Source of the DNA: an uncultured Pseudobdellovibrionaceae bacterium
GTDB taxonomy: Bacteria; Bdellovibrionota; FAC87; UBA2466
Assembly: GCA_964492125.1 (NCBI GenBank)
Contig: CAZBJE010000001.1
Span: 4,018-68,017 of the forward strand
Reading direction: 5' to 3'
Length of the DNA stretch: 64,000 nt
Under the pieces are notes generated by a model. That model did not search any database and was not told the origin of the DNA. It was given only the letters and a program-made list of their open reading frames with translations. This document shows, piece by piece, positions 2,262 through 25,364 of the stretch (positions within the stretch are counted from its first letter, which is position 1; each line of letters begins with the position of its first letter). The position numbers and the translations under genes are program-made.

Positions 2262-3847
2262 ACAGGAACCTCATTCAAAGTAGAGCCGCCCGAAGGCGCA
2301 ACACCCGCACCGGCGCGAGCCGCGTGGGTCAAAATTGTTTCTTGGGTTAAGCCGCGGTTTGCTAAGTCGGCCACACACCGGCCTTCACGCAAAACCAAAA
2401 CCCGGTGGCAGAGCGCTAAAATCTCCGGCAACTCCGACGACACCACAATGACACCAACGCCGCTCTTAGCGAGCTCGCCGATAACTTCGTAGATTTCGCC
2501 TTTAGCGCCCACGTCGATACCGCGGGTTGGTTCGTCTAGCATCAAAAGCTTGGGCGAGCGGGCGACCATTTTCCCAAGCAACACCTTTTGTTGATTGCCG
2601 CCGCTGAGCGACTTAATGGGTTGGGTGGCGTCGGCGAACTTAACCCGTAAGTGCCGCCGCAATTCCTCGATGCGCTGCTTTTCTCGGTCGAAGTCGATCC
2701 ATTTCACTCGATTGACTAGAGAATCTAAAATCGAAACAGTGAAGTTGAATCCCACTCCGAGATCCAGAAAAAGGCCCTCTTTCTTTCGATCTTCGGGCAC
2801 GAACGACACGCCGTCGTTCATTGCTTCGATAATCGAATTCCAATGCACCGGCTTACCGTGATAGCGCACCGAGCCTTCTCGGCTTCCCGGCAGCGCACCC
2901 ACCAAGGAACGCAGCAATTCACTGCGGCCCGACCCCATCAACCCCGCAATTCCCAACACTTCACCCGGCCGCAAATCGAAAGAAATTCCTAGAAGTTTCG
3001 TTTCGCCCCAGGGATCGCGGTGAGTGAGATTGCTCACTTCGAGCAGTTTATCGGCGGTGGGCGTAGCGCCGCTGAAGTATTGCTTATCCAGAATCGGGCG
3101 GCCTACCATCCAGCGCACGACTTCTTCGGGGGTAGTTTCTGCTACAGGCTTATCCGCCACTGCGGTGCCGTCGCGCAGAACCACAATCCGCGTGGCCAGC
3201 GAAAAAATTTCGTCCAGTTTATGGGAAATATAAATCAGAGTGACGCCCGCGCCCTTTAGTCGATCGAGCACGGCAAAAAGTTGGCGCACCTCTCGATCCG
3301 AAAGCGCGGAAGTGGGTTCGTCTAAGATCAGCAATCGCGCTTGGTGATGGACGGCCTTGGCGATTTCGACCATTTGGCGTTGAGCCACGCTCAAATCGCC
3401 CACCCGGGCGCGCGCGTCGATATCAAAACCCAAATCCGCCAAAAGTTCGGATGCCTTTTCAAACATCTGGCGCCACGGCACTCGCCGCAACATTTTGGAC
3501 GAAGGCGTACCGTCGTATGGCGCGTCCTCGGTGAGAAAAAGGTTTTCCGCTACCGACAATTTGGGAAACAGGCAAAGCTCTTGGTGAATAATCGAGATGC
3601 CAGCGCGGCGCGCTTCCAGCGGCGAATTCACTTGCAGCGGCTTGCCATCAAAAGCGACTTGGCCTTCGTAGCTTCCCTGAGGCCAGACCCCACTGAGGAT
3701 TTTCATCAGAGTGGATTTACCGGCGCCGTTTTCTCCCACAAGCGCGAGCGTTTCGCCCGCCGACAATTCAAACGTGACGTCTTTCAACGCCGCTATTCCG
3801 CCAAACGATTTGGCCACGTGGGTGACACTGAGCAAAGAGGGCTTCAT
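2258..3847 (-). CDS. sugar ABC transporter ATP-binding protein, duplicated ATPase domains (RbsA/MglA-like)
   Basis: 529 aa with two Walker A sites (GENGAGKST; GLMGSGRSE), ABC signature LSGGNQQK and Walker B LLMLDEPT. Confidence 0.85.
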   Translation of the reverse strand: MKPSLLSVTHVAKSFGGIAALKDVTFELSAGETLALVGENGAGKSTLMKILSGVWPQGSYEGQVAFDGKPLQVNSPLEARRAGISIIHQELCLFPKLSVAENLFLTEDAPYDGTPSSKMLRRVPWRQMFEKASELLADLGFDIDARARVGDLSVAQRQMVEIAKAVHHQARLLILDEPTSALSDREVRQLFAVLDRLKGAGVTLIYISHKLDEIFSLATRIVVLRDGTAVADKPVAETTPEEVVRWMVGRPILDKQYFSGATPTADKLLEVSNLTHRDPWGETKLLGISFDLRPGEVLGIAGLMGSGRSELLRSLVGALPGSREGSVRYHGKPVHWNSIIEAMNDGVSFVPEDRKKEGLFLDLGVGFNFTVSILDSLVNRVKWIDFDREKQRIEELRRHLRVKFADATQPIKSLSGGNQQKVLLGKMVARSPKLLMLDEPTRGIDVGAKGEIYEVIGELAKSGVGVIVVSSELPEILALCHRVLVLREGRCVADLANRGLTQETILTHAARAGAGVAPSGGSTLNEVPV

Positions 3848-3852
3848 GCGAC

Positions 3853-4929
3853 TTACGTCTTCCCCGGGCCGAAGACCGATTCGGCGGAATGAAAACCTGA
3901 ACCGACCACCACGTCGCGCAAGTTTTCTTTCAGCACTTTTTCCACCGGCGTGTTCAACACCGGAATATCTGCAAAGCCGTTGTTCATCGAAGCGTCGGTT
4001 TTGACCGGCTGTTTGCGCGCCAGCGCCACGGCCGCACGGGCCGCTGCTTCCGCCAAGGGACGAATCCCTTTGAGCACCGTCATGGGTTGCTTCCCGGTGA
4101 GCACGTTGCGGACGGCGGTGAGATCAGCGTCCGCGCCAGCCACGAAAACTTTGCCGGCCAAGCTTTGTTCTTCCAAGGCTTTAACCGCACCCAAGGCCAT
4201 GCCGTCGTTGTTGGCCAAGACCGCGCCGATCTGGTTCTTGTAGCGAGTCAGGGCGTTTTCGACGGTAGCCAATGCACCGGCTGTCGACCAACCCGGGTGG
4301 CTCTGGCGCACCACCACCTGAATGGCGGAGTATTTTTCCAAGACGGAAAGGTTGCCTCGGGTGATTTCGTCGGCAACCGAGTGGCCCGGCTCACCGGAAA
4401 GGATCACCACGTTGCCCTTGCCTCCCAACGCTTTGACGGCCTCTTCCGCTTGGTAGACGCCCACTTGAAAACTGTTTTGCGTCACATAGAGGTCGATGGG
4501 GGCGTTTCGGATAAGCCGGTCGTACGAAATGACCGGCACCCCGTCGGCCTTGGCGGACTTGGCCATGGCGGCGGCGGCTTCCGAATGCACGGGTTGGATC
4601 ACCAGGGCATCCACCCCTTTGGCGAGCAGGTTTTCCACCCGAGAAGTCTGTAAATCCACCTTGTTATCGCAAGCGGCGAACTCGACGTCGGCCCCCAGCG
4701 ACTTGGCCATGGCGGTGAAATAATCGCGATCCTTGAGGTAGCGCTCCTCGTTCATCGTCGCCAGAACGAAGCCGATGCGGGTGTTGCGCGGAGAATGAGA
4801 GGCGGTACGCGTGCATGACGCGCTCAGGCAAACCAAGAACAACGTGAGCGCGCAGGCCGCAAACCCACGTAATTTCAAAAACATCGTACCCCCACGGGTA
4901 TTTAACAAAACCCTGAAACTGTCTGTCAA
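3853..4929 (-). CDS. periplasmic sugar-binding protein (PBP type 1, RbsB-like)
   Basis: 358 aa, signal peptide plus lipobox-like SASC; periplasmic binding fold signature; first gene of the SBP-ATPase-permease operon. Confidence 0.7.
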   Translation of the reverse strand: MTDSFRVLLNTRGGTMFLKLRGFAACALTLFLVCLSASCTRTASHSPRNTRIGFVLATMNEERYLKDRDYFTAMAKSLGADVEFAACDNKVDLQTSRVENLLAKGVDALVIQPVHSEAAAAMAKSAKADGVPVISYDRLIRNAPIDLYVTQNSFQVGVYQAEEAVKALGGKGNVVILSGEPGHSVADEITRGNLSVLEKYSAIQVVVRQSHPGWSTAGALATVENALTRYKNQIGAVLANNDGMALGAVKALEEQSLAGKVFVAGADADLTAVRNVLTGKQPMTVLKGIRPLAEAAARAAVALARKQPVKTDASMNNGFADIPVLNTPVEKVLKENLRDVVVGSGFHSAESVFGPGKT

Positions 4930-4976
4930 ACGTTTGACTCGTGGGCTGTCGGAATTAGAAAGAAACTAAACCCTGT

Positions 4977-6452
4977 TCACTTCTTTTCGATGCTGTGTGC
5001 TTCTTCTTTCTTTAAATGCGGGCGGTCCCTGCTCGTCTCAGGGTGTTCATAATCTTGCACGGCAGCTTTTGCGATTTCCTCACAGCTACCCCTTACGAGA
5101 TCCTCACGGAGAATTTCTAGATGAGGATGATAGTAGTTCCGTTTTTCTTTCCTTTTTATCGCCGAATCCAAACCCTGCAAGTGCTGAGGGATGTAAGTTT
5201 GCAGACTAATGCCACCCGTATTGTATTGGAGCGGCGAGTGCGAACTGTAAGACTTTAGGAAGGAGAAGAACCTGTCCGGGACTAGGAGCTCTTCCTCCTC
5301 GTCTAGCCTCTGGGTCAGCATAATCGTGCCAGGAGAGACACCGAGGTAATCAAGCAGCATCAGTAGTCGAATCGAATGTTCTATATCGGGACGATTCTGC
5401 TCTTTGGCAAACTGTGAAATTCCCTCTTCAACCTTGGTCCATTTTGCATGCCGAATACGGTTGTGCTTTTTGAAGTCCGCGCGAATCCATTGGATGCTTT
5501 GTTCAATCATAGGAGGGGACAAAGTGTAGTTACCCTCCCCGTCTTTTAAACGAGAAGTTAGACAGCCGGAGAGCATGTACAAAAGCACGTGCTTGAATTT
5601 TGAGTACCGTTCCGGATGTGTTTTTTGTACGCGAAGCGCGACCGAGCGAGCCGCCCGGGCACCCAGCAGAGCGGAAAGACTTTCATTGGGAAGACCGCCA
5701 ATTAGTTCACGCCTCTCATGAAACGAAAAAAGTTTGCCGGCAGGAGGCGGAGGTAACTCCTTTGGATTCACCGAACCACCTCCGTCCTGCTCTCCAGATT
5801 CCGCGATCTCTTTCTGGATATTCTTCTCCTGCTCCGGGGTCGCCAAATGGAGCTGCCAATAAGGAAAAGAGGCCCGCGCATCTTTCGGAAATAGCGGGGC
5901 GAATGCTGGATGCGCCTTCAGTTTTTTAAAGTTCGCATCCTCCGGATCGATTCTATCGTCGGCTTCACCCAAAAAGCCCTTCCATGTCTTTTTTACTGAG
6001 TCGTTGTCGTATTCACCCCAGATATAGGTGAATTCCGAACGGGAGCCATGACAAGAGGCGCATGCCGCCGGATTATTGGTTACGTGGGGTTCGCCGCCCT
6101 TAGTGTCTGTGAGACGAATCAAATAGGGTGTGATTGCTCCATCAATATCTTCCGCCATCTCCATCGTTTTCGACCCAGGTGCTAGACCCAAAACGACCGT
6201 TGCATCGTCACCGAAAAGTAGACCCCGCATACCTCCTTGAGAGGAAGCACTGTCGAAGGCGAGGGTGAATCCCTTGCCGGTTTCCTTGGCTAACGTACTC
6301 GTCAGATGGGGGACGTCTTGAGATTCGAGGCCGCGGATTTCAGTCAGCAGTATCTCCAATTTGGGTCCCCGCACCTCTTTGCTTTCGGGGCGCCCCGCAA
6401 AAGAGAACGATGCGATACCGGCAAGTGCCACAACCAGAGAAAGTTTCCGCAT
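4977..6452 (-). CDS. secreted hypothetical protein with single CxxCH heme-binding motif
   Basis: 491 aa, N-terminal signal peptide, one CASCH motif (NNPAACASCHGS); no second heme motif seen; no other recognisable family. Confidence 0.4.
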   Translation of the reverse strand: MRKLSLVVALAGIASFSFAGRPESKEVRGPKLEILLTEIRGLESQDVPHLTSTLAKETGKGFTLAFDSASSQGGMRGLLFGDDATVVLGLAPGSKTMEMAEDIDGAITPYLIRLTDTKGGEPHVTNNPAACASCHGSRSEFTYIWGEYDNDSVKKTWKGFLGEADDRIDPEDANFKKLKAHPAFAPLFPKDARASFPYWQLHLATPEQEKNIQKEIAESGEQDGGGSVNPKELPPPPAGKLFSFHERRELIGGLPNESLSALLGARAARSVALRVQKTHPERYSKFKHVLLYMLSGCLTSRLKDGEGNYTLSPPMIEQSIQWIRADFKKHNRIRHAKWTKVEEGISQFAKEQNRPDIEHSIRLLMLLDYLGVSPGTIMLTQRLDEEEELLVPDRFFSFLKSYSSHSPLQYNTGGISLQTYIPQHLQGLDSAIKRKEKRNYYHPHLEILREDLVRGSCEEIAKAAVQDYEHPETSRDRPHLKKEEAHSIEKK

Positions 6453-6513
6453 CCGACTAAAATAACTTAGCCGACCCGCTTCGTCATTGGCATCAGCAAA
6501 TGAGTTCGTAGAC

Positions 6514-6527
6514 TACTGTAATTACAG
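6514..6527. promoter_or_regulatory. perfect 14-bp palindrome ACTGTAATTACAGT in divergent promoter region
   Basis: Read directly; lies between the divergent CxxCH-protein gene and the pilW-like gene; CTGT-N4-ACAG core; a TATAAT-like -10 and GAGGAG RBS follow at about 6640-6660. Confidence 0.3.
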
Positions 6528-6665
6528 TGAAATTTTCGATTCATGAAGTAGCACAGACGAACCCGCCACCGCAAGGCAACGACGAACCTCCCGATGTTCG
6601 GCAAATGCGCCTCCTTACTTGGAAGAAGTGACGTCGTGCAGCTATAATGAAGAGAGGAGAAAACC

Positions 6666-7430
6666 GTGAGTAAATCAGCCAAAATCCAGTGGACGTCGTT
6701 CGGAGTCCTAGCCGGGGTGCTGCTTTCCGGTTGTGCGGGCTTTGTCAGCCAAAAGGATCGCGAGGTTTCGCGGGTCCATCTCCAGCATGCTTCTGACTTG
6801 CTCGGTCAACGCGATTACAGCAAAGCTATTGAAGCCGCCAACGACGCGCTCAAAGCCGATCCGACGCTTGCGCCGGCGTACAACGTGATTGCCCTCACCT
6901 ATCTGGAAACCAAACGCTACGAAAAGAGCGAGGAAGCGTTTCAAAAAGCGCTCGCGATTCAGCCAGCGTACCCGGAAGTGTTTAATAATTTGGGCGTGCT
7001 TTATAACCGGCAGGAAAAGTTTGACCTCGCTGTGCCGTGGTTCAAGAAGGCTCTGGCCGACGACAATTACCTCACGCCCGAAAACGCGTACACCAATTTA
7101 GGTTATGCCCTTTACCGCCAGGGCAAATATGCCGATGCATTGGACAACCACCAAAAAGCGCTGGATGTTTCGCCGCTTTTTTGTCTGGCCAGTAAGAACA
7201 TGGGTGACGTTTTTGCCAAACAAAAGGCGTACGCCAAGGCTTCTCGTTACTACGACAAGGCCGTTACGAATTGCCCGCTCTACCAGGAAAGCCAATACAA
7301 GCTGGGGTTGGTTCTGATGAAGATGGGCAACCGCAAGGTAGCCAAGGCAGAGCTGGAAAAGCTAGTACGTCGCCACAAAACAGGTCCTTACGTCGAAAGA
7401 TCGTCCGAAGTTCTCAAGTGGCTTAAGTAA
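6666..7430 (+). CDS. pilW: TPR-repeat lipoprotein, type IV pilus biogenesis PilW/PilF-like
   Basis: 254 aa, GTG start, lipobox LSGC, about 6 TPR units (NLGVLY, NLGYALY...); conserved position immediately upstream of rodZ. Confidence 0.6.
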   Translation: MSKSAKIQWTSFGVLAGVLLSGCAGFVSQKDREVSRVHLQHASDLLGQRDYSKAIEAANDALKADPTLAPAYNVIALTYLETKRYEKSEEAFQKALAIQPAYPEVFNNLGVLYNRQEKFDLAVPWFKKALADDNYLTPENAYTNLGYALYRQGKYADALDNHQKALDVSPLFCLASKNMGDVFAKQKAYAKASRYYDKAVTNCPLYQESQYKLGLVLMKMGNRKVAKAELEKLVRRHKTGPYVERSSEVLKWLK

Positions 7431-13501: not shown

Positions 13502-14695
13502 TTAGTCGTGCTGCCGGCGCAAGAAGGTCGGGATATCGTATTCTTCGCTCTCGAAGAAGCGCTTCCCAATCTCGCGTGCGAGCTGCCGAGCTGATTTGAG
13601 ATCCGTGGAAAGGTTCTCTTTGCGTTGAACCGGGGTCCCCGAGGTCTGGGCAACCTGCAATTCCTGGGTGGCAATCGCGGGGGCTTCGAGTTCGGGAGCT
13701 TTCTTTTCCACTTCGGCGGCAACGTCTTTGGTGACCACCGGGCTGAAGCCCGTGGCAATCACGGTTACCCGCACTTCGTCCTTCAAGGAATCGTCGATGA
13801 CCGAACCGAAAATGATTTCGCAGTCGTCGTCGGCTTCTTCCGTGATGAGCGAGCTGGCTTCGTTGACCTCGAACAGGGTGAGGTCCGAACCGCCGGTGAT
13901 ATTGATAATGATGCCGGTGGCGCCATTAATGCTCACATCTTCCAGCAGCGGCGAGGCAATCGCCTTGCGCGCGGCTTCGATGGCCCGGTTTTCACCGGAA
14001 GCGCTTCCGGTTCCCATCAACGCGAGGCCCTTATTCGCCATCACCGCGCGGACGTCCGCGAAGTCGAGGTTGATAAGACCGCGGATGTTGATCAAATCCG
14101 AAATCCCTTTTACCGCCTGGTACAGCACTTCATCCGCTTTGCGGAAGCAGTCCAGCATCGTGGTGGTTTCGTTGGCTACGTAGAGCAACCGCTGATTAGG
14201 GATGCAAATCAAAGTATCGACCGCCGCCTTCAGCTCTTCGATGCCTTTGTCGGCGTTGCGACGCCGGCGCTTGCCTTCGAAGTTAAAGGGCTTGGTGACC
14301 ACCCCAACCGTCAACGCGCCCGCTTCCTTGGCGATGTTGGCGATGACCGGAGCGCCGCCCGTTCCCGTACCGCCGCCCATTCCAGCGGTGATGAAGACCA
14401 TGTCCGCGCCATAAAGCATTTCTGCGATGCGGCCACTATCTTCCAAAGCGGCTTGACGACCTACTTCGGGGTTGGCACCCGCGCCCAAACCTTTGGTCAG
14501 CTCGTTGCCGAGTTGAATGTGGTAAGGAGCCGGGTGAGTGGCGAGCGCCTGGTTGTCGGTGTTGGCTGCGACAAAGTCGACGCCATTCAGACCCAAGGCG
14601 ATCATGGTTGCGATGGCGTTGGTTCCGCCTCCGCCGACGCCGATCACTTTAATTTTTGCGCCCTGCACTGTTTCTTTCTCCACAATTTCAAACAT
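13502..14695 (-). CDS. ftsZ: cell division protein FtsZ
   Basis: GGGTGTG tubulin signature and [14 protein letters not shown]-terminus; 397 aa. Confidence 0.95.
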
Positions 14696-17766: not shown

Positions 17767-19005
17767 TTATATCGCGTGGTCGTTAATAAAGTCGATAAAC
17801 GCCCGGAGCGAGCCGTAGTCGCGGCGATCGTACGGAAAGACGAGCCGCGGCAATTTGGCCAATTCAGGCTCATTGCCCTCTTCCGCGAGCGGGCCGCTGG
17901 TCTTAATCTCGCCGCCCTTGGCCAAGAAACCGAACTTTTCGTTCAGCTGTTTGACTACCGCAGGGCTGAGCTGTTTTTTCAGACGGACCACCGCGCGATC
18001 CCGCGTAAAGCGCATGGAATGGTAGGTGCTGTAGAAGTGATCGATATGGTCGAGCGCCTCTTTGGGAGTATGGAAAATCCGGTAAAGATTCTTGTCAGAT
18101 TCAGCGATAAAACCGTCGTGTAAAACGGTTTCGTATAAAAACTTCACAAGGTTGGTCCAAAAACCAAATCCCTCGGGCTCTACCATCACCACCGGAATCA
18201 AATTGGACTTGCCGGTCTGAATGAGCGTTAAAACCTCAAAGGCCTCATCGAACGTGCCAAAACCGCCCGGAAAAAAAGCAAACGCCCAGGCTTCCTTCAC
18301 CAAAAAAAGTTTACGGGTGAAAAAATACTTGTAGTGAATGAGCATGTTCTCGTCGTCGAGAAACGGGTTGTGGGTCTGCTCAAACGGCAACCGAATATTC
18401 AAACCGAAGCCGGATTTTTCTTCCGCGCCTTCGTTACCCGCCGCCATAATCCCCGGCCCGCCACCAGTGATAATCATGTACTCCCGTCGCGCCGCTTCGG
18501 CTGCGAAATCGCGGGCAAAATTGTAGAGCGGCGTGCCCGCTGGCACCCGCGCGGAACCGAACATTGTAATCTTGGGGCGGTGGCGATGCGGGTAGAAAGT
18601 CTTGAAGGAAAAACGCAGTTCCTTAATTGTCGTGGCAGTGATCTTCAGGTTTAGGGTCCCGGGGCTTTCCATCGCAAGCTTAGCGGCAGCCCGGAAAATA
18701 TCGCCGATAACAGGCAAACGGTGCGGCTTTTGCTCCTTGGCCAACTTGTGCACGATGGCGTCGAGATCCTCTTCCCACTTTTCCAGAGGCCGTTTGCTTC
18801 GGCGCCGATCTGCCACGGCGGCTGCGGCAGCGGGGGTCCCGGTCTTGCCTTCGTTGGGGGCCTTGGCAGACGCGATGTCAACGCCCTTGAGTCTAGCGGC
18901 CTTTTTGGGCTGCACTTTCTTGGCTGGTTTAGATTTCGGACTCTTGCTCTTGCTCGGATTCTTTGCTTTGGAGTGCTTAGTCTTTGTCGTTTTCTTCTGC
19001 GCCAT
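17767..19005 (-). CDS. LOG-family nucleotide 5'-monophosphate nucleosidase, PpnN/YgdH-like, with Lys-rich N-terminal tail
   Basis: LOG motifs GGGPGIMAAGNEGA and PGGFGTFDE with flanking domains as in long-form PpnN; about 60-aa N-terminal extension rich in K/P/S/A (KKTTKTKHSKAKNPSKSKSPKSKPAKK). Confidence 0.6.
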   Translation of the reverse strand: MAQKKTTKTKHSKAKNPSKSKSPKSKPAKKVQPKKAARLKGVDIASAKAPNEGKTGTPAAAAAVADRRRSKRPLEKWEEDLDAIVHKLAKEQKPHRLPVIGDIFRAAAKLAMESPGTLNLKITATTIKELRFSFKTFYPHRHRPKITMFGSARVPAGTPLYNFARDFAAEAARREYMIITGGGPGIMAAGNEGAEEKSGFGLNIRLPFEQTHNPFLDDENMLIHYKYFFTRKLFLVKEAWAFAFFPGGFGTFDEAFEVLTLIQTGKSNLIPVVMVEPEGFGFWTNLVKFLYETVLHDGFIAESDKNLYRIFHTPKEALDHIDHFYSTYHSMRFTRDRAVVRLKKQLSPAVVKQLNEKFGFLAKGGEIKTSGPLAEEGNEPELAKLPRLVFPYDRRDYGSLRAFIDFINDHAI

Positions 19006-19056
19006 TTGGAGCCTTTCCCTTTGCCTGCCTACGGACCTTATACGATAATACTCGCG

Positions 19057-20268
19057 ATGACAGCCACACTTACATCACGGCGTTGGTACTTCTTGCAGTT
19101 AATTCTCGCCGCCCTAGGAGCGGGCACCAGTCTTTATCTCCTAGTGCAACATATCCGATTGAAAACGGGAATCCAAGTTGGCTCGAGCTTCTGCACCCTC
19201 GGCCAATACGCCGACTGCAATGTCGTGAATGCCAGCCAATACTCCGAAGTCGCCGGTATCCCGCTGGCGGCGCTGGGCGTGGTCTACTTTGTTTGCCTTT
19301 TCATGTTGGGCGTGACCCAACCGCCGATTAGCCGGGGCTTTGCCCGCGCTCAAGTGTGGATGGCGCGGCTGGCGATACTGGCACTGGCCGTCGACGTGTT
19401 TCTCTTTGGCGTGCAGGCTTTTGCCGTGCACAGTTTCTGCCTGCTTTGTTTGTTTACCTATTTATGTACCGCGGGGCATTTGGCCGCCAATTGGCTCAAC
19501 CAACCCAGGGGCGTGCGCAATGGCCGCCATTGGCTGGTAGGCGAGCGCAAGGCCCAACTGGCCTCTTTCGCCATCGCTGCGAATCTAGTGGTCCTCATCG
19601 GCGTGTCCACCGCTCTTTTCCAGTACGTATTTGGAAGTGCGGCAGCGGAGCACATTGCGAATTTAGAGCAGTCCAAGAAAGTGTTTTTGGAAACCTGGTC
19701 CACGCGGCCCGCAAAATCCATCCCGATAGGCGAAAAAGATCCGAGTTGGGGCAACCCGCAAGCCAAGGTGCGCATCGTCGTTTTTAGCGACTTCGAATGC
19801 CCTCATTGCCAACGCGCCGCCTTTGCCCTGCACACGGCACTAGCGTCGTCCGAATCCCAGGTGCAACTGGTTTACAAAAACTTCCCTTTAGACATGGCGT
19901 GCAACCCCCTGCTGAAGCAGCCGATGCATACCAATTCTTGTGCTTTGGCAAAATTGGGGTTTTGCGCCAACGAAAAGAAAAAGTTTTGGGAATTCCACGA
20001 CCGGGTTTTCTTTAAACTCTCCGCCCGAGAAATCTCCAGCGATCAAAATGCCATGCACGATGGCATGAAACATATTTTCACCCGCAAGGAATTTGATGAG
20101 TGCCTGGCCAATCAAGACGCCCTAAGCCATACGCAGCGGGATATCGACTTAGGCCGCAATTTGGAAATCGATTCCACGCCGGCAATCTTTATTAACGGTA
20201 AAAGAGTTGCCTTTACTCCTACGGTGGATCTCATCCGCGACCTCGTACAAAGAGAACTCCCAAAATAA
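19057..20268 (+). CDS. vitamin K epoxide reductase (VKOR) domain fused to DsbA-like thioredoxin domain
   Basis: N-terminal polytopic VKOR-like region with Cys pairs (CTLGQYADC; CLLC); C-terminal thioredoxin fold with CPHC active site (FSDFECPHCQRAA); start set at ATG 19057. Confidence 0.7.
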   Translation: MTATLTSRRWYFLQLILAALGAGTSLYLLVQHIRLKTGIQVGSSFCTLGQYADCNVVNASQYSEVAGIPLAALGVVYFVCLFMLGVTQPPISRGFARAQVWMARLAILALAVDVFLFGVQAFAVHSFCLLCLFTYLCTAGHLAANWLNQPRGVRNGRHWLVGERKAQLASFAIAANLVVLIGVSTALFQYVFGSAAAEHIANLEQSKKVFLETWSTRPAKSIPIGEKDPSWGNPQAKVRIVVFSDFECPHCQRAAFALHTALASSESQVQLVYKNFPLDMACNPLLKQPMHTNSCALAKLGFCANEKKKFWEFHDRVFFKLSAREISSDQNAMHDGMKHIFTRKEFDECLANQDALSHTQRDIDLGRNLEIDSTPAIFINGKRVAFTPTVDLIRDLVQRELPK

Positions 20269-20316
20269 CCGTCCCAGCCCAAGCGAAACGGCTTGCGCTA
20301 AGCAAACGCAAATCGA

Positions 20317-21168
20317 CTAGAAAACACCGCCCGAGTGTACCTCTCGCGCGAGAGGCGCTCGAGCGGCGGGCCCCAGACCTGGGAAGTCCTTGCTTCCCAA
20401 CATGAGATTGTGCGCACGACATAAAACCCTGAGGTTTTCAATTTCCCGGCTACTTCCGCCCTTAGCCCAGGGCCTTATATGGTCGATTTGGAGGTGCGCC
20501 GTTTGGTTGCAGCGCACACCGGTCGGGCTTTGGTAGCTGCAGCGATGCCCGTCGGACTCCATAACGTGACGGCGCAGAGCAGCCGAAACAACACGTGTAT
20601 GCTTAACGGCTTTTAAAACTCGGCGAGGGCGCTTACTGACGACTTCCTTCAACGCCCGCTTAATCAAAAGGAGACGATCTTTTTGTCCATAAAGCTTACC
20701 AGCTTCCATGAGCAATCCCCGGAGCTCCTCGTCGATAGGCAAATTCAAAAACTCGGCCGGCGCCACGACGTCAAAATGCTCCGCCAACACTTGAGCAATC
20801 TCACGAGTGGACTGTCGTTCGACCAACGGCAACATCTCCGAAGCATTGGAGGGAGTAAGATGGGGCGCAATCAAACTCAAGCCAGAGAGCGAAAGGTCGT
20901 TGCGCGCGAGCAAAGGCTTTGCCTCGGGAACTCTTAATAAGCACCGCGCAGCCTGTATCCGCCTCCAAGCCTCGCTCTCAGAATAATTCAGATAGCGGAC
21001 ACAGAAGTCCTGCAAACTCGAATAACCCTCTTCTTTCCAGAGCTGACGGCAATCCACCGCGGCGAGATATTCGAGAACCACCAGCGTCGACTGCTTTTCC
21101 AGTTCCACACTCCGCTTAGTTTCCAAAAGCAAAACGGACTTTTCTAATTCCATGTATTTCATGGGCAC
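20317..21168 (-). CDS. HNH endonuclease domain protein with unassigned about 190-aa N-terminal domain
   Basis: C-terminal HNH motif (HRCSYQSPTGVRCNQTAHLQIDHIRPWAKGGSSREIENLRVLCRAHN); isolated gene convergent with the VKOR-dsbA gene. Confidence 0.65.
   Translation of the reverse strand: MPMKYMELEKSVLLLETKRSVELEKQSTLVVLEYLAAVDCRQLWKEEGYSSLQDFCVRYLNYSESEAWRRIQAARCLLRVPEAKPLLARNDLSLSGLSLIAPHLTPSNASEMLPLVERQSTREIAQVLAEHFDVVAPAEFLNLPIDEELRGLLMEAGKLYGQKDRLLLIKRALKEVVSKRPRRVLKAVKHTRVVSAALRRHVMESDGHRCSYQSPTGVRCNQTAHLQIDHIRPWAKGGSSREIENLRVLCRAHNLMLGSKDFPGLGPAARAPLAREVHSGGVF
20339..20357. repeat. 19-bp palindromic repeat ACCTCTCGCGCGAGAGGCG, copy 1
   Basis: Read directly; core CCTCTCGCGCGAGAGG is a perfect 16-bp palindrome; lies inside the last codons of the HNH ORF. 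Confidence 0.55.
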
Positions 21169-21484
21169 CTCGATTGTGAATACATAGGTATGTGTTTAGG
21201 GGAGGGTAGGCAATAGGAAAGAGCGATTAATCGTCGATAAATGGGGAGCGCGCGCTCCGATTTTTCGAAAAAAACAAAAAGTAAAAACTCCGAATTCCGA
21301 ATCGCATTCCAGGCAAGGCCAACGCAGAAAGCCAGTAGCAAAAAAACGGGTTGCACCGAACAAGACCCAACGCAAATCGCTCAGCAGCGAACGGGCCAAG
21401 ACTCTAAGACGAGTCGAAAGCTAAAAATCAAGAAGAGCGAAGCGACAGCAAAGACAAATCGTTCCCAAATAAAACCGACCACCC

Positions 21485-21503
21485 ACCTCTCGCGCGAGAG
21501 GCG
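21485..21503. repeat. 19-bp palindromic repeat ACCTCTCGCGCGAGAGGCG, copy 2
   Basis: Identical 19-mer 1146 bp from copy 1, on the other side of the HNH gene inside the non-coding tract. Confidence 0.55.
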
Positions 21504-21711
21504 AAAGTTAACCAAATACCAAAAACCATGGCTTCGGCTTGAGAGAGGCCACTCCCCACCTGTCCAAAGTTTGGACAGCCAAGTAAGCATTAGCCACCCC
21601 TCCACGACGTAGGCGATCTCGCTAAGTTAGACCGCTGAAATCATTGACTAATGCAGCCACAAACTAGGCCTCTGGATTGCTTCTAAGTAGAGGTGGAGGT
21701 CTAGGCATCTC

Positions 21712-23217
21712 GTGCGTACGGCTTGGCTCATTTTAGCTCTCTTGGCTACTTCGGCACCCGCCTGGGCGACGCCCGAGGACGCGGATAGGTCTGAAGAAAA
21801 AGCCCGCGCGTCGTTCGTGGATCAATTCACCAAATTCATGCAAGACAGGAACGTCCAAGGCCGCGCCAAATCGCCGGATGGAAAAGTGGTCGGGGGCGGT
21901 AAGAAAACCCGCTTCAACGGTGACGACGGTCTCGCGTTTCAGTCCGAATTGACCTACCACGACAACGCGTTCAATGCGGTGGTAATGGCGCCTGGCCAAG
22001 GGGCCATGGATGCTAAAAATGGGAAACAGGAAGAAGAAAAGAAAGAAAAGGTTTTGCACGCCTTCGTATCGCCGCACGGTGGTTTGACCGCCGCCGGGGG
22101 ATCATCGCTCTTGGAGAGGACTGCGTACCAGTTTGACCAACAGTATGCCGAGCAAGATGCAAAGAATAAGAACCAGCAAGAAACGCCCGGCGTGAAGTAC
22201 CGTTCCATTTTTAAGATTACGACTAAAGAAGTTTTCGAAGAAGGCAAAGGCGCGGGCCAAACACCGCCTGCTGGTGGCGGCAATGCCAAGATGGAAAAAG
22301 ATAAAGTCGACCGCTACGAATTGCGCGACGAAGTTAAACAAGCAGTGGATAAGGTCGGCGTTACTTCCAGCGAATCGATCCTGCAAGCCGCCCGCGGCGA
22401 AGGCAACGAAAACGATGACAAGGCGTTAGGAAACGGGGTGCTGCTGCGCGCGGCGGCCGCAGAAGCCAGTAAAGCGCTTTGGAATTCCACTTTATCGAAC
22501 TTGTCGCAACGCCGAATCAACCGTGCGATCCGCGCCGGTAGTTTACCCTTCTCGGTGCAAACCACCGAAGGTGCGCCTCGTTGCGAAGTTTGGGCGCAAG
22601 AAGCCACCAACCAAATCAATCAGGTGCAGGGCCGCAAACCGGAAGACACGAAAGCCATGCTCCAAGACGTGCAGCGCATGTTGCAGCAGTGCAAGCAAGT
22701 GGCAGCGGTTCCGTACAATATGATTAACCCGACCTTTAAGACCGACGAAAAAGGCGCGGAGAATTTGGAATCGCAAGGTACGACTAAGGAAGACTCCTTT
22801 CAGCGCGACTCCCGCATTCAATTGGAGATTTTGGCCAAGGCCGGCAAGAGCGTGACGGAAGTTCCCTCCAACTGGCAGTATGGAAAAGATGCCGATAAGG
22901 CCCGCATGACTATTCAGTACGACGAAGGCCAGGCCAAAGAAGGCACGCGCTCTATGGCCGAACAACTCGATTCGTACAATAAGAATTTAGAAAGCGCTCA
23001 GGAAGGGTACGACGAAGTCGCTACTCGCTTGCCCGGCATGAAAACCGGCAAACCGCTGGACTATGTTATTCAGCCGGGTACTCGTTCGCTAGTCGAAATC
23101 AATCAACCGCCGGCTTCGGCCTTTGACGAAGTGGGCATCCAGAAGGCGCCGCCCAGCCCAACGGGACCGGTACCGCAAACCTACGACCAACTCTTGCAAC
23201 GCGCCCAAACCAATTGA
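21712..23217 (+). CDS. secreted hypothetical protein (501 aa, hydrophilic, low complexity)
   Basis: Signal peptide MRTAWLILALLATSAPAWA; charged Lys/Glu/Gln-rich; no recognisable domain. Confidence 0.5.
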   Translation: MRTAWLILALLATSAPAWATPEDADRSEEKARASFVDQFTKFMQDRNVQGRAKSPDGKVVGGGKKTRFNGDDGLAFQSELTYHDNAFNAVVMAPGQGAMDAKNGKQEEEKKEKVLHAFVSPHGGLTAAGGSSLLERTAYQFDQQYAEQDAKNKNQQETPGVKYRSIFKITTKEVFEEGKGAGQTPPAGGGNAKMEKDKVDRYELRDEVKQAVDKVGVTSSESILQAARGEGNENDDKALGNGVLLRAAAAEASKALWNSTLSNLSQRRINRAIRAGSLPFSVQTTEGAPRCEVWAQEATNQINQVQGRKPEDTKAMLQDVQRMLQQCKQVAAVPYNMINPTFKTDEKGAENLESQGTTKEDSFQRDSRIQLEILAKAGKSVTEVPSNWQYGKDADKARMTIQYDEGQAKEGTRSMAEQLDSYNKNLESAQEGYDEVATRLPGMKTGKPLDYVIQPGTRSLVEINQPPASAFDEVGIQKAPPSPTGPVPQTYDQLLQRAQTN

Positions 23218-23248
23218 GTGCCCAAGCCCCCCATGCTATAGCCACCCC

Positions 23249-23713
23249 ATGCTTGAAACCAACGGGTTGGTCCTACTAAAAGCTTTCGCCGCGCGGCCCG
23301 TCTGCCAACGTGCGACTGCACCACTTCGAGTAGGCTCCGAAATGGCGATTCAGGTTGACCAAGGCCCGGTGTTGACCTTGCGGCGCACAAAGACTCAGTT
23401 GGAAGTCGTTACCGAAACGACTACTAAGCCGGATCTCAGCTTCAAAATTCCGTTGAAATCTTTGCAGGCCTTGGCCACCGACACTTCCGACGATATCGGC
23501 GAAGTGGGCATTGAGCTCCTGAAGCTTTTGGCCGCCCCACAGGCCGAGGACCGGATGGAAGCCAAGGTGCACATCGGCCCTATGGAGCTTTTTCTGCGGG
23601 GGTATCTCGGCGTGCTGCCGTTAGGCGGGCCGTCGGTGATGAAATTTTTGGCCAACAAAGGCTTTTCCAGTATTTCCAAAATCAAGGAAGGCCTCTCCCG
23701 CTTCCGAGGGTAA
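23249..23713 (+). CDS. hypothetical protein (154 aa)
   Basis: ORF immediately upstream of and coupled to hpt (3-nt gap); start chosen at ATG 23249 (track start 23123 overlaps the previous gene); no recognisable motif. Confidence 0.35.
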   Translation: MLETNGLVLLKAFAARPVCQRATAPLRVGSEMAIQVDQGPVLTLRRTKTQLEVVTETTTKPDLSFKIPLKSLQALATDTSDDIGEVGIELLKLLAAPQAEDRMEAKVHIGPMELFLRGYLGVLPLGGPSVMKFLANKGFSSISKIKEGLSRFRG

Positions 23714-23715
23714 TT

Positions 23716-24255
23716 ATGCCAAAACTTCACGTGCACATTTCCGCCGCCGAAATCGATAAAATGAACGAGGAGCTCGCGGCTCGTATCAGCGCCGACTACG
23801 CCCGGGTGATGAAACCGGGTGAGGAGCTTTTGGTCATCGTGACGCTCAAAGGGGCGGTGTTTTTTGCCGCCGATCTAATGCGCAAGATTACGGTGCCTTG
23901 CTGCATCGATTTTGTGCGCCTTTCCAGTTACGGGGCCGGCACCCAGTCTAGCGGCACCGTGAAGATGAGCAAAGGTCTGGAAGACGCCATCACCGGCAAA
24001 CACGTTTTAGTCCTCGATGAAATCGTCGATTCCGGCCGTACTTTGAGCTACCTGGTCGAGCGACTAAAAGGCGATGCGCCAGCATCGCTGAAACTTTGCG
24101 CGCTACTCAGTAAACCCAGTCGCCGCGAAGTGAAGGTGGACGTGGAGTACCTCGGTCAAGAAGTCGAAGACAAATTCTTGGTGGGCTATGGCCTCGATCA
24201 CGGGGAACGTTACCGCAATCTTAAAGAGATCTATTGGCTGGAAAACGACGCTTAG
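23716..24255 (+). CDS. hpt: hypoxanthine phosphoribosyltransferase
   Basis: PRPP-binding motif VLVLDEIVDSGRTL and overall Hpt architecture; 179 aa. Confidence 0.85.
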   Translation: MPKLHVHISAAEIDKMNEELAARISADYARVMKPGEELLVIVTLKGAVFFAADLMRKITVPCCIDFVRLSSYGAGTQSSGTVKMSKGLEDAITGKHVLVLDEIVDSGRTLSYLVERLKGDAPASLKLCALLSKPSRREVKVDVEYLGQEVEDKFLVGYGLDHGERYRNLKEIYWLENDA

Positions 24256-24922
24256 CGGTTTTGTTTTAGGAGCGCTTTTCGCTCTCCCCGGTTTTTTGAC
24301 AGGCATCACCCACGGACCCCGCGACACGAAGCGGGTGGCTCTGACTCTCGACGACGGCCCCAACCCGCCCTACACAGAGATGTTCCTGCGGATTCTCGCT
24401 CAGGAAAACATCCCAGCAACTTTTTTCATGTTAGGGCGAAATATCGAGATGTACCGGCTGTCCGCGCTGCGCGTAGCGGCCGGCGGGCACGAAATCGGTA
24501 ACCATAGTTTTTCCCATACGGCTTTGGCGTTCTCAAGTCCACGCAGGACCTTGTGGGAGATTGAAAGAACCGACGCGCTGATTCGGGGGTTGGGCTACGA
24601 GGGCAATGTGCCTTTTCGCTCGCCCTACGGAGAACGGTTTGGGCTGCACGCTTGGATTTTGCTTTGGCTAGACCGAGGGAATTTTCTCTACGACGTACCG
24701 CCAATCCCCCCGGACTACTTTCGTTCCGATCCCCAAGCCATGGCCGATTCGGCGGTAGCACGGGCACAGAATGGATCGATTCTGCTTTTTCACGACGGAG
24801 AAGGACTTCGGGTGGAGTCGCTGGAGGCCACCGCCCAATCCGTGCGGCGATTGAAAGCAGCGGGTTACGAATTTGTTCGGCTCACCGAGTTGGGGCACGG
24901 CGGAAAAGCACATCCGCCTTGA
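24188..24922 (+). CDS. polysaccharide deacetylase (NodB homology domain)
   Basis: TLDDGP motif 1 and HEIGNHSFSH motif 2 of carbohydrate esterase family 4; N-terminal TM/signal; start overlaps hpt 3' end (start uncertain). Confidence 0.6.
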   Translation: MASITGNVTAILKRSIGWKTTLSGFVLGALFALPGFLTGITHGPRDTKRVALTLDDGPNPPYTEMFLRILAQENIPATFFMLGRNIEMYRLSALRVAAGGHEIGNHSFSHTALAFSSPRRTLWEIERTDALIRGLGYEGNVPFRSPYGERFGLHAWILLWLDRGNFLYDVPPIPPDYFRSDPQAMADSAVARAQNGSILLFHDGEGLRVESLEATAQSVRRLKAAGYEFVRLTELGHGGKAHPP

Positions 24923-25364
24923 AATGCAAAACGCGCGGCTCGTCGGGAGATTCCATAGACAGATCTTCGATGTAAACGCGCACCACCCCGCCTGCCACCG
25001 TGCGCTCTTGGGTAAGCAACGCTTGGGGGATGCCCCGCACCCCGGGGTGCTTGTCGAGATACGCTCGGGCGTTTTTCATCAGTTCTGTGAGATCCATTTC
25101 GGCGTCTACCTGGGCGTCGCGGACCCGCAACCGCGGGGGCGAAGCTTTCCACTCCACCTGGTAGGTGCGGCCCCCGTGGGTGACGGCGTGGGACTTTGCG
25201 TCGCCGTCGAAGGTGCGGAAAAACTCAAAACGCGAAAGCCAGTCGAATCCTACGACATCGTACTCAGGCGGGTAGAGAGTCGTGAGAGATACATAAGCGG
25301 CAAACGCAGCAGCGCTCCGCGTCAGACCCCAAAGCGCGATCCCCACCCCCAAACGCGTCCGCAT
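24882..25364 (-). CDS. hypothetical secreted protein
   Basis: 160-aa ORF with signal-like N-terminus; no recognisable motif. Confidence 0.3.
   Translation of the reverse strand: MRTRLGVGIALWGLTRSAAAFAAYVSLTTLYPPEYDVVGFDWLSRFEFFRTFDGDAKSHAVTHGGRTYQVEWKASPPRLRVRDAQVDAEMDLTELMKNARAYLDKHPGVRGIPQALLTQERTVAGGVVRVYIEDLSMESPDEPRVLHFKADVLFRRAPTR

Follow-up and report, generated by a model that had tools for sequence, protein, structure and literature searches.

The HNH nuclease gene of the window (the whole 64-kb stretch of DNA that was analyzed), together with the two identical palindromic 19-mers associated with it, has the appearance of a small, selfish gene cassette of a kind not described before. 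Chance does not account for the repeat pair, which is conserved in related loci and co-varies with the protein subclade. Tentatively, we favor reading the locus as an accessory cassette of ~1.2-1.4 kb that is complete in itself and probably selfish, with palindromes that serve its own HTH-HNH protein as sites in cis; we infer both mobility and cleavage of this cassette from sequence comparisons. Three readings had been offered in the earlier note, namely a mobile or selfish cassette, a single-gene defense module, and a gene with paired operator sites. The first is the best supported, because the paired end motif is found family-wide, four paralogs and solo palindromes are present, and the distant member L127 has inverted repeats; the third is borne out in part, and the second gained no positive support.

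The 19-mer ACCTCTCGCGCGAGAGGCG occurs twice, at a spacing of 1146 nt from start to start (Table 1), and has a core, CCTCTCGCGCGAGAGG, that forms a perfect palindrome of 16 bp, exactly as had been described; the chance expectation for such 19-mer matches is 0.02, and the observed count was reached in 0/100 shuffles. It had also been reported that no other copy is present in the window, and indeed no further site was found in the 64 kb with ≤3 mismatches. Two of the three perfect palindromes of ≥16 bp in the window are the 19-mer sites themselves. The copies had been placed one on each side of the gene, and this has to be corrected, since the 3' copy lies inside the tail of the open reading frame, where it spans codons P272-E276 ("PLARE") of the non-conserved C-terminus. 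Protein homology stops at the palindrome, and the tails past it are unrelated among homologues. Because the reading frame through the 3' palindrome differs between homologues (PLARE vs. VSRARGS), the palindrome is not kept as a peptide. The two 19-mers of the window repeat each other directly, their asymmetric flanks reading CG...T in gene orientation; in the homologous loci L001 and L006, the asymmetric flanks are inverted relative to each other.

Table 1. Features of the HNH locus; positions are those of the window.
Feature	Position	Strand	Basis or remark
HTH-HNH nuclease ORF	20317..21168	minus	ORF list; 283 aa counted from GTG 21168
N-terminal all-helical domain, aa 1-178	20635..21168	minus	KorB/ParB-like DNA-binding fold
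HNH (beta-beta-alpha-metal) nuclease domain, aa 196-261	20386..20583	minus	Motif residues intact
3' copy of 19-mer (CCTCTCGCGCGAGAGG palindrome)	20339..20357	unstranded	Within non-conserved ORF tail, 22 nt before stop
Distal 5' copy of 19-mer	21485..21503	unstranded	~320 nt upstream of start codon
SD	21168-21174		After promoter-proximal block
Conserved promoter-proximal block: TTGCCT (-35-like), 17 nt, TACCTATGTATTCA	21180..21213	minus	Alignments; putative promoter
Operator-like box TTTATCGACGATTAA, also given as TTTATCGACGATAAA; family consensus TTTATCGnCGATAAA (7-1-7 palindrome)	21227..21241	minus	
Different perfect palindrome GGAGCGCGCGCTCC	21245..21258	unstranded	Immediately upstream of conserved box
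T-rich stretch with palindrome TTTTTCGAAAAA and repeat ATTCGG-N-ATTCGG	21261..21330	minus	~80% identical to L001
Variable (accessory) segment vs. closest syntenic relative L150	20271..21660	unstranded	blastn

The HNH gene and the VKOR-DsbA gene, whose end is at 20268, converge, in agreement with the earlier description. Its true start is more likely the ATG at 21162, which would give a protein of 281 aa, the length of database protein P0001, to which the window protein is a 100% match. An exact look-up of P0001 retrieved no contig. Full-length homologues number ~60, with identities of 44-70%. The protein scores above the cutoff for Pfam HNH (PF01844; E 9.7e-07, 29.3 bits, cutoff 21.4), and the HNH fold is present with its catalytic and Cys/His metal-ligand residues. 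In an alignment of 30 homologues, D229, H230, C210, C220, C250, H253, and N254 are invariant and N245 is nearly so, and nuclease activity is predicted for the window protein. The family is so far known only from the chromosomes of Bdellovibrionota-like bacteria.

A search with the N-terminal domain, as had been suggested, yielded a fold and no sequence family: fold comparison showed similarity to the DNA-binding domains of KorB, ParB, Spo0J, SopB, and VirB, and there was no sequence-level match in Pfam or PDB. KorB/ParB-type proteins bind short palindromic sites, and the resemblance of the N-terminal domain to their DNA-binding domains makes the flanking palindromes plausible sites for the gene's own product; the idea of paired operators thus survives in a different form from that first proposed. 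Unlike members of the KorB/ParB family, the window protein has no ParB/Srx CTPase domain at its N-terminus according to Pfam, the helical domain filling the whole N-terminal region; it also lacks a sequence match to that family and carries a fused C-terminal nuclease domain. The N-terminal domain alone matches 8167 cluster representatives, and it is fused to RuvA_C in distant relatives. Membership in DUF222 (PF02720), the type that had been suggested for this domain, was rejected (13.9 bits vs. a cutoff of 24.4, E 0.033, aa 30-124), and none of the more distant relatives matched DUF222 (0/20).

Paired palindromes recur in the related loci. The best 5'/3' match scored 15-19, where shuffles reached at most 11-13, in six of the nine loci tested (the window, L001, L003, L005, L006, and L141) and fell within the shuffle range in L004, L139, and L146; L154, outside the nine scored loci, has the same palindrome at both ends. 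An equivalent of the 3' palindrome is present in L001, L003, L005, L006, L141, L146, and L154. The GC-rich members examined are mostly bracketed by matching (CG)n-centered palindromes of 14-20 bp, with at least one copy upstream and one directly after the conserved coding region, and the paired motif is absent from low-GC freshwater homologues and from distant homologues. L127, a distant member, has 41-bp terminal inverted repeats that are 85% identical (score 23 vs. a shuffle maximum of 11), the right repeat beginning at the stop codon. The upstream copies vary in number and position (-110, -333, -423, and three copies in L154, the extra ones at -338 and -275), the matching 5' copy of L141 being likewise distal at -423; this variation fits arrays of binding sites as well as it fits element ends. 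Regarding the co-variation with the protein, P0004 and P0006 (72% identical) share the CTCTCGCGCGAGAG palindrome, and P0005 and P0012 (78% identical) have ATCGCGCGCGAT-type palindromes, the 3' copy of P0005 being degenerate; the two groups are ~50% identical to each other.

The variable segment delimited by blastn takes in the two 19-mers together with the HNH gene and the tract upstream of it. Window 18987-20270 corresponds to 218-1505 of L150 (78%), window 21661-24992 corresponds to 3686-6997 (74%), and the window interval between the two blocks has no counterpart in L150. In L150, which has the same flanks (its VKOR-DsbA is 84% identical), the slot is occupied by a BrnT/BrnA toxin-antitoxin pair and an XRE gene; in another relative, two unrelated genes occupy it. 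The absence of the HNH gene from the slot in L150 and L151 amounts to an insertion polymorphism, in place of the conserved synteny in all relatives that the earlier note had considered would speak against a cassette. The difference in L150 and L151 is a replacement by other genes and not a clean empty site, and neither such a palindrome nor a palindrome pair was found in the slot of the relatives lacking the HNH gene. The variable segment runs 68 nt and 157 nt past the two 19-mers. Orthology of the flanks of the window and L001 was rejected, their downstream genes being unrelated. The window and the four JTS-AC74 loci have no flanking genes in common, so that no empty-site comparison is available there.

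The window has a single copy of the HNH family gene. The Bdellovibrionota MAG GCA_041749855.1 encodes four divergent paralogs on four contigs in unrelated contexts, and also has three solo palindromes, with no HNH gene within the same 8-kb stretch, that are located in a convergent-gene gap, a tandem-gene gap, and a divergent promoter region; ~0.001 such palindromes per genome are expected by chance. With identities of 50-78% among the paralogs, and no near-identical copies, there is no record of a recent move; target-site duplications are not apparent at L127 or in the sequence flanking the palindromes. Neutral flanks would be randomized at the divergence of the paralogs, so that the points at the palindromes where conservation stops may be due to function instead of marking the ends of an element. 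Carriage by phages or plasmids was rejected, as tblastn against 50,697 phage and 72,556 plasmid records gave no match; IMG/VR yielded no relative either.

The atypical non-coding tract (21169-21711) had been thought to follow the gene, but it is the divergent intergenic region on its 5' side. In this region, a plus-strand ORF (21241-21612) for a small basic protein of 123 aa was rejected from the comparison with L001, in which changes fall mainly at codon positions 1 and 2. The T-rich stretch is similar in L001 despite a different downstream gene, and its substitutions, as read from the alignment, show no third-codon-position bias, indicating that the stretch is non-coding. The palindrome GGAGCGCGCGCTCC lies near the usual site of the promoter-proximal palindrome in most homologues; L146 has the GC-rich GCGCGCTCCCC before the box in common with the window, and a separate, adjacent palindrome further upstream. 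The operator-like box has one match within the 64-kb window at ≤2 mismatches. Its exact consensus occurs once per locus, ~65-85 nt upstream of the start codon, in 13 fetched loci that represent 6 distinct HNH genes (several loci re-sample one gene), and in none of the unrelated loci; the window, L001, L004, and L139 have the box with 1-2 mismatches. The TACCTATGTATTCA element of the promoter-proximal block includes the family motif ATACATATGTAT. We assign a promoter to this block provisionally, judging from its conservation; a sigma-70 scan gave no promoter at its own threshold.

It is less likely, but deserves serious consideration, that the HNH gene is a stationary accessory gene, and that the palindromes and the TTTATCGnCGATAAA box are autoregulatory or insulating sites for its own protein or for a host factor. 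Such sites would tightly repress a potentially toxic nuclease or connect one end of the gene with the other. Genes that come and go in the ordinary way in a variable slot would account for the patchy distribution, and the nuclease would serve the host, for instance in defense or repair. The KorB/ParB-like fold, the varying upstream copies (three in L154, distal in the window and L141), and the operator-like box at a fixed position before the promoter are all consistent with this, as are the age of the paralogs, judging from their divergence, and the toxin-antitoxin pair in the slot of the closest relative, which is typical of accessory or defense islands; the fusions of the N-terminal domain with RuvA_C in distant relatives hint at DNA repair. 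However, a stationary gene leaves unexplained why one copy is constantly located just past the coding region, why L127 has terminal inverted repeats that are long and non-palindromic, why solo copies lie in unrelated intergenic regions of the HNH-rich genome, and why each of four paralogs in unrelated contexts has its own matched pair. As for defense, PADLOC gave only PtuB, a weak match (E 0.018) over the HNH region, and neither PtuA nor other partner genes were found near the HNH gene. Assignment to a known anti-phage defense system was therefore rejected.

For the selfish cassette that we favor, the following course can be envisaged. The single encoded protein carries, in front of an intact HNH nuclease domain, a DNA-binding domain of the KorB/ParB-like helix-turn-helix type, and the cassette has a conserved putative promoter region and an operator-like box of its own. 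Judging from the fold, a dimer of the protein would bind the flanking palindromes via the helix-turn-helix domain, and the HNH domain could cut at or near them; the cassette might then be copied or moved into solo palindromes by break repair or by cutting and rejoining, and might also be lost again. By analogy, the box near the promoter would provide autorepression. To our knowledge, HNH nucleases are not among the known transposase classes, which counts against the selfish cassette, and our literature search found no description of a palindrome-flanked HTH-HNH architecture. The palindromes beside the gene are intact, which is unexpected for homing cleavage sites and is a further point against the selfish cassette. 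The overrun of the variable segment past the 19-mers, the three loci that score no higher than shuffles, and the homologues without a paired motif also weigh against it.

We consider it unlikely that the locus represents a new compact class of mobile element, in which the HTH-HNH nuclease would be its own "transposase," cutting the palindrome centers on both sides and re-entering at solo palindromes. For this to operate, a dimer would have to recognize the 16-20 bp palindromes, and the cassette would be rejoined or copied by break repair. If the element ends were the inner halves of the palindromes, each insertion would rebuild a full palindrome at both junctions and excision would leave a solo palindrome, making a natural "restriction-and-ligation" cassette. 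No transposase of a recognized type was found in the window protein, which has only the HNH and HTH-like domains.

We give still less credence to the palindrome being a REP-like or terminator-like intergenic repeat of the host, functionally independent of the HNH protein. The solo intergenic copies in GCA_041749855.1 would agree with a host repeat, as would the ability of the palindrome to fold as a hairpin with a 6-bp stem, and the palindrome counts in the genome collection are to be read as "at least." On the other hand, all core-palindrome matches (29/29; 19 sources, ~210 kb, of which ~150 kb non-redundant) are inside HNH cassettes. No unlinked core copy was found in the ~150 kb of non-redundant DNA around the HNH loci, nor in the other 62 kb of the window or the flanks of ten other loci. 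Among the matches listed in a scan of the genome collection for the CCTCTCGCGCGAGAGG 16-mer, which lay outside the source genome of the window, almost all were single copies from unrelated phyla at near-chance frequency, and the three viral matches were all singletons. The dispersed REP-like element that the earlier note had raised as a counter-indication is therefore not what was encountered. Moreover, 5'/3' pairing at fixed positions recurs across distinct genomes, the palindrome type changes with the protein clade inside one genome, the slot of relatives without the gene contains no such pair, and the 3' copy of the window is within the ORF and has no T-run.

An element acting at the RNA level, whose copies would pair or fold in the mRNA for stability or translation control, or whose upstream tract would encode a guide-like or regulatory RNA (cf. 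IscB/HEARO), is very improbable: the two copies are complementary to each other, NCBIfam IscB gives a weak match limited to the HNH part (31 bits vs. a cutoff of 175), and the gene strand has a terminator-like hairpin (21375-21351), but a structured or guide RNA in the upstream tract was rejected since there was no Rfam match at the gathering threshold or E≤1 and the tract folds no better than its shuffles (z = -0.06), the stretch from the distal palindrome to the promoter shows no homology between the window and L141, the window protein has neither a RuvC nor a PLMP domain (Pfam, NCBIfam), dimeric DNA-binding proteins are the more typical users of perfect palindromes without a loop, and the 5' palindrome would not be transcribed if the putative promoter downstream of it is used.

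HNH genes with an unannotated helical N-terminal domain are very common; annotations usually call them "HNH endonuclease" or "McrA," and nothing is known of their biology. For one clade there is now a concrete model, with a KorB/ParB-like module, candidate target sites in the palindromes flanking the gene and in the promoter box, and hints of gain and loss from comparisons between loci. Should the protein indeed act on the flanking palindromes, this would account for the spread of such genes, an HNH-based mechanism could join the short list of routes by which DNA cassettes move, and such proteins would be natural nucleases with long sites (16-20 bp). If the palindromes are only operators, the locus would be a tidy case of nuclease autoregulation, of modest interest.

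Several known systems resemble the locus in part. REP13E12 is named in a list of repeat classes (PMC10589994). The REP13E12/DUF222-HNH genes of mycobacteria are likewise multi-copy chromosomal genes encoding a helical N-terminal domain and a C-terminal HNH domain, comparable to the four paralogs of GCA_041749855.1, and REP13E12 is treated as a repetitive, possibly mobile element of unknown mechanism; the window protein differs in falling below the DUF222 cutoff, as do its distant relatives, and in belonging to a different host phylum. Matched palindromes flanking REP13E12 on both sides are not known to us from any report, and none was found in the literature search. The RAYT/REP system is similar in having a single nuclease gene between two short palindromic repeats, with a repeat type of its own for each paralog in one genome and with solo intergenic repeats. 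However, RAYT is a Y1 HUH enzyme and not an HTH-HNH protein, its repeats number hundreds per genome, whereas those described here are rare, perfect, and loop-less, and one repeat copy here is inside the ORF. Free-standing HNH homing endonucleases share the stand-alone nuclease gene, a sequence-specific DNA-binding module, presence or absence at a slot, and a long, rare potential recognition sequence, and the plausible operator in the promoter of the HNH gene recalls I-TevI, an autorepressor of its own promoter. Unlike homing endonuclease genes, the HNH gene has no phage or intron context, its copies lie in unrelated chromosomal contexts, and the gene does not split the putative sites, both of which are intact, the slot of the relatives having no palindrome. 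IscB/OMEGA systems differ in their RuvC and PLMP domains, which are missing here, as is any Rfam match, and the IscB score of the window protein is limited to the HNH part.

Small insertion sequences, including those of the IS200/IS605 type, lack counterparts here in that no DDE, HUH, serine, or tyrosine recombinase fold was found in the window protein, and neither identical copies nor target-site duplications were seen. They nevertheless resemble the locus in their size of ~1 kb, in having one ORF whose end overlaps the right end, and in ends that are palindromes or inverted repeats, and the long terminal inverted repeats of L127 are also of this kind. Outside L127, L001, and L006, the repeats are self-palindromes of variable number upstream, the two copies of the window being in direct orientation.

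Both 19-mers described in the earlier note (ACCTCTCGCGCGAGAGGCG, whose core is a perfect 16-bp palindrome) were recovered in the window (Table), and the absence of further copies also held, no third site being present anywhere in the 64 kb at up to three mismatches. From shuffles, 0.02 matches are expected, and two of the three perfect palindromes of at least 16 bp in the window are the 19-mer cores; the palindromes are non-random. The longest perfect palindrome of the window, ACCGGAAGCGCTTCCGGT, is unrelated in sequence to the 19-mer. The copies had been placed one on each side of the HNH gene: the 5' copy does lie upstream, but the 3' copy lies within the non-conserved tail of the ORF, in the codons PLARE, 22 nt ahead of the stop. 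The non-coding tract that was said to follow the gene is actually upstream of it; it measures 543 nt and lies in a divergent intergenic region. Because the GTG overlaps the Shine-Dalgarno sequence, ATG 21162 is the likelier start, and its 281-aa product is identical to database protein P0001.

Table. Positions of the HNH gene, palindromes and neighboring features in the window and in compared loci (negative values, nt relative to the HNH gene)
Feature	Position	Description
19-mer, 3' copy	20339-20357	window
19-mer, 5' copy	21485-21503	window
HNH ORF	20317-21168, minus	window; 283 aa
Promoter box copy	21227-21241	window; one mismatch
Palindrome GGAGCGCGCGCTCC	21245-21258	window; different from 19-mer; directly ahead of promoter box
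T-rich stretch	21261-21330	window; compared with L001:1-70
Terminator-like hairpins (two)	21351-21393, minus	window; HNH-gene strand
Variable segment	20271-21660	window; syntenic slot is L150:1506-3685
VKOR-DsbA ORF	18721-20268	window; 515 aa
Longest palindrome	13994-14011	window; 18 bp
L001 (P0002)		5' CTCTCGCGCGAGAG; 3' CCTCTCGCGCGAGAGG
L003, L005 (P0004, P0006)		5' AACCTCTCGCGCGAGAGGTT type; 3' same type
L006 (P0012)		5' ATATCGCGCGCGATG; 3' CATCGCGCGCGATAT
L004 (P0005)		5' CATCGCGCGCGCGATG; 3' degenerate copy
L141 (P0017)	5' -423	3' CTCTCGCGCGAGAG
L146 (P0021)	second 5' copy -247	5' ATCTCGCGCGAGAT; 3' CCTCTCGCGCGAAAGA
L154 (P0025)	5' -338, -275, -110 (L154:3663-3910); 3' 4789-4802	three 5' copies; one 3' copy, CG center 2 nt shorter
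Solo palindromes, JTS-AC74	L017:5181-5219; L091:5464-5483; L105:3622-3639	

About 60 full-length homologues (44-70% identity) were found in MAGs labelled Deltaproteobacteria, Bdellovibrionota or just "bacterium." The layout recurs in the loci examined, with a 5' palindrome about 100-120 nt ahead of the start codon and a 3' palindrome right after the last conserved codons, 18-62 nt ahead of the stop. The window has nothing palindromic at about -110, and the 5' partner of its 3' copy is distal. When the 500 nt upstream were compared with the 3' end, the best ungapped match scored 15-19 in six of the nine loci, where shuffles peaked at 11-13; in L004, L139, and L146 it did not rise above shuffles. 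By eye, L139 has similar hairpin-type motifs (GAACATTG..CAATGTTC upstream and GAACATG..CAATGTTG at the 3' end), which are statistically unremarkable. The triple upstream copies of L154 resemble a binding-site array. In place of palindromes, L127, a distant member with 49% identity, has imperfect terminal inverted repeats of 41 bp, the right one beginning at the stop codon (score 23; shuffle maximum 11). Judging from the asymmetric flanks, the copies are inverted in L001 and L006, and direct in the window. Protein homology stops at the palindrome, and the frame through the 3' copy varies among homologues (PLARE vs. VSRARGS), indicating conservation as DNA and not as peptide. Because the paired motif was found neither in low-GC freshwater homologues nor in more distant ones, the repeat pair is a sub-clade property. 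The Logan contigs L001 and L002, from two samples, both end 205 nt upstream of the HNH gene, as would be expected if assembly breaks at a repeat boundary.

The palindromes have persisted over long divergence; in many loci the copies match each other, and from locus to locus they differ by lineage. The Bdellovibrionota MAG JTS-AC74 (GCA_041749855.1) carries four HNH paralogs on four contigs in unrelated contexts. P0004 and P0006 are 72% identical and have the CTCTCGCGCGAGAG type in common, P0005 and P0012 are 78% identical and have the ATCGCGCGCGAT type in common, and between the two groups identity is about 50%. Like paralogs carry like palindromes, and therefore palindrome type tracks protein lineage inside one genome.

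All 29 core occurrences in 19 sources (the window, ten HNH loci, two syntenic relatives, and related contigs; about 210 kb, ~150 kb non-redundant) fall inside HNH cassettes. This makes it a rare palindrome, closely and almost exclusively tied to this HTH-HNH family, with a few solo copies. The dispersed repeat at many loci that the earlier note raised against a cassette was not seen, and in the sources scanned the palindrome does not behave as a high-copy REP. A 16-mer scan of one genome per species gave at least 117 stretches; nearly all of the matches listed occur once each in unrelated phyla, at about the level estimated for chance, and one stretch lies beside a family HNH gene. Also among the matches listed, JTS-AC74 has three more copies, solo and intergenic, whose 8-kb stretches contain no HNH gene; about 0.001 solo copies per genome are expected. 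That the palindrome is a host REP is improbable. In L017, an unrelated 20-bp perfect palindrome (AACTGGTCACGTGACCAGTT) lies 3 nt past the solo copy.

In the interval from the upstream palindrome to the start codon, four elements are conserved across paralogs whose spacers are otherwise randomized: a palindromic box of 7-1-7 form (TTTATCGnCGATAAA), the hexamer TTGCC, the motif ATACATATGTATTCAT, and a Shine-Dalgarno sequence, GGAGG. An exact copy of the box is present once per locus in 13 loci with a family HNH gene and in none of 136 other loci examined, mostly unrelated sequence. The 13 loci stand for six distinct genes, since some of them are repeat samplings of one gene. The promoter may have the form TTGCCn-17 nt-TACATA, a spacing that fails in L003 and L005, and the 5' palindrome would then stay untranscribed; a sigma-70 scan gave nothing at its own threshold. 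Rfam had no match, the upstream tract shows no excess of structure over shuffles, and an RNA-level role of the palindrome is very improbable. The T-rich non-coding stretch, about 80% identical to that of L001, contains the palindrome TTTTTCGAAAAA and the repeat ATTCGG-N-ATTCGG, and is more strongly conserved than the coding region despite a different downstream gene. The two terminator-like hairpins, one followed by a T-run, are situated in the upstream tract, with the distal palindrome on one side and the promoter region on the other; they could shield the HNH gene from transcription coming from upstream or terminate a short transcript.

The HNH gene comes and goes among genomes, and has multiplied within one. 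The closest relative, JGI contig L150 (Ga0558079_0014967), encodes a homologue of the VKOR-DsbA neighbor (84% protein identity) and aligns with window 18987-20270 (78% nucleotide identity) and 21661-24992 (74%). In the slot between, it has a BrnT/BrnA toxin-antitoxin pair and an XRE-type HTH gene, with neither the HNH cassette nor a 19-mer-type palindrome, and L151, a relative of 65% identity, has two other small unknown genes there. This comparison of orthologous loci, suggested in the earlier note, thus identifies a variable segment, a hotspot for accessory genes, and not synteny conserved in all relatives. The segment edges lie 68 nt and 157 nt outside the two 19-mers; the difference is a replacement, not a clean insertion. 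The VKOR-DsbA ORF is over-extended at its 5' end, where it overlaps the upstream minus-strand gene; its database counterpart, P0121, has 415 aa.

In the window protein, Pfam places an above-threshold HNH domain at aa 219-252, NCBIfam and PADLOC matches are confined to the HNH part, and PHROG matches concern the HNH domain only. Across 30 aligned homologues, the residues of the HNH motif vary little or not at all. For DUF222, suggested earlier for the N-terminal part, Pfam gave a sub-threshold match. The N-terminal domain matches the folds of KorB (8qa8, 6.8-6.9), the KorB-operator complex (1r71, 6.4-6.7), ParB (6s6h, 6.6-6.7), Spo0J (5.4-5.6), SopB (4.8-5.1), and VirB (4.2-4.4), all of them dimers binding 13-16 bp palindromes. 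Because the match to KorB/ParB is moderate and no sequence-level support was found, "KorB/ParB-like HTH" is supported as a fold assignment, not as family membership.

Judging from these patterns and the KorB/ParB-like fold, the simplest account is that the cassette's own protein recognizes the palindromes as cis-acting sites, which would make the cassette a selfish or accessory unit. We tentatively favor a mobile unit, which is quite possible: the nuclease would act at the flanking palindromes, the solo copies would be its targets or footprints, and the promoter box would serve autorepression. Mobility better explains the inverted-repeat ends of L127, the copy placed precisely where the coding region ends, the existence of solo copies, and the palindrome types specific to paralogs. 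The main rival, in which the gene does not move and the palindromes are operators or insulators, is less likely; it fits the varying number and position of the upstream copies as well as how old the paralogs are. Since no neutral flank survives at 50-78% identity, the end of homology at the palindrome alone cannot define element ends, and the intact sites beside the gene argue against classical homing. An HNH-driven cut-and-rejoin element landing in solo palindromes is unlikely.

Homologues of the HNH protein were found in neither the phage nor the plasmid collections searched, nor in IMG/VR. In mycobacteria, DUF222/HNH genes go by the name of REP13E12 repeats (PMC10589994). The literature searched contained no description of a palindrome-bracketed HTH-HNH architecture. 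We know of no earlier description of such an architecture with lineage-matched sites. This protein type is common, yet uncharacterized. Its N-terminal domain is widespread (8167 cluster representatives at E<=1e-3; 2205 at E<=1e-10); among ten sampled members, six have a C-terminal HNH and none matched any Pfam model for this domain. Some distant relatives (P0076, P0112, and P0187) carry a RuvA C-terminal domain by sub-threshold Pfam matches, a hint that the wider superfamily may be connected with the processing of branched DNA or Holliday junctions.
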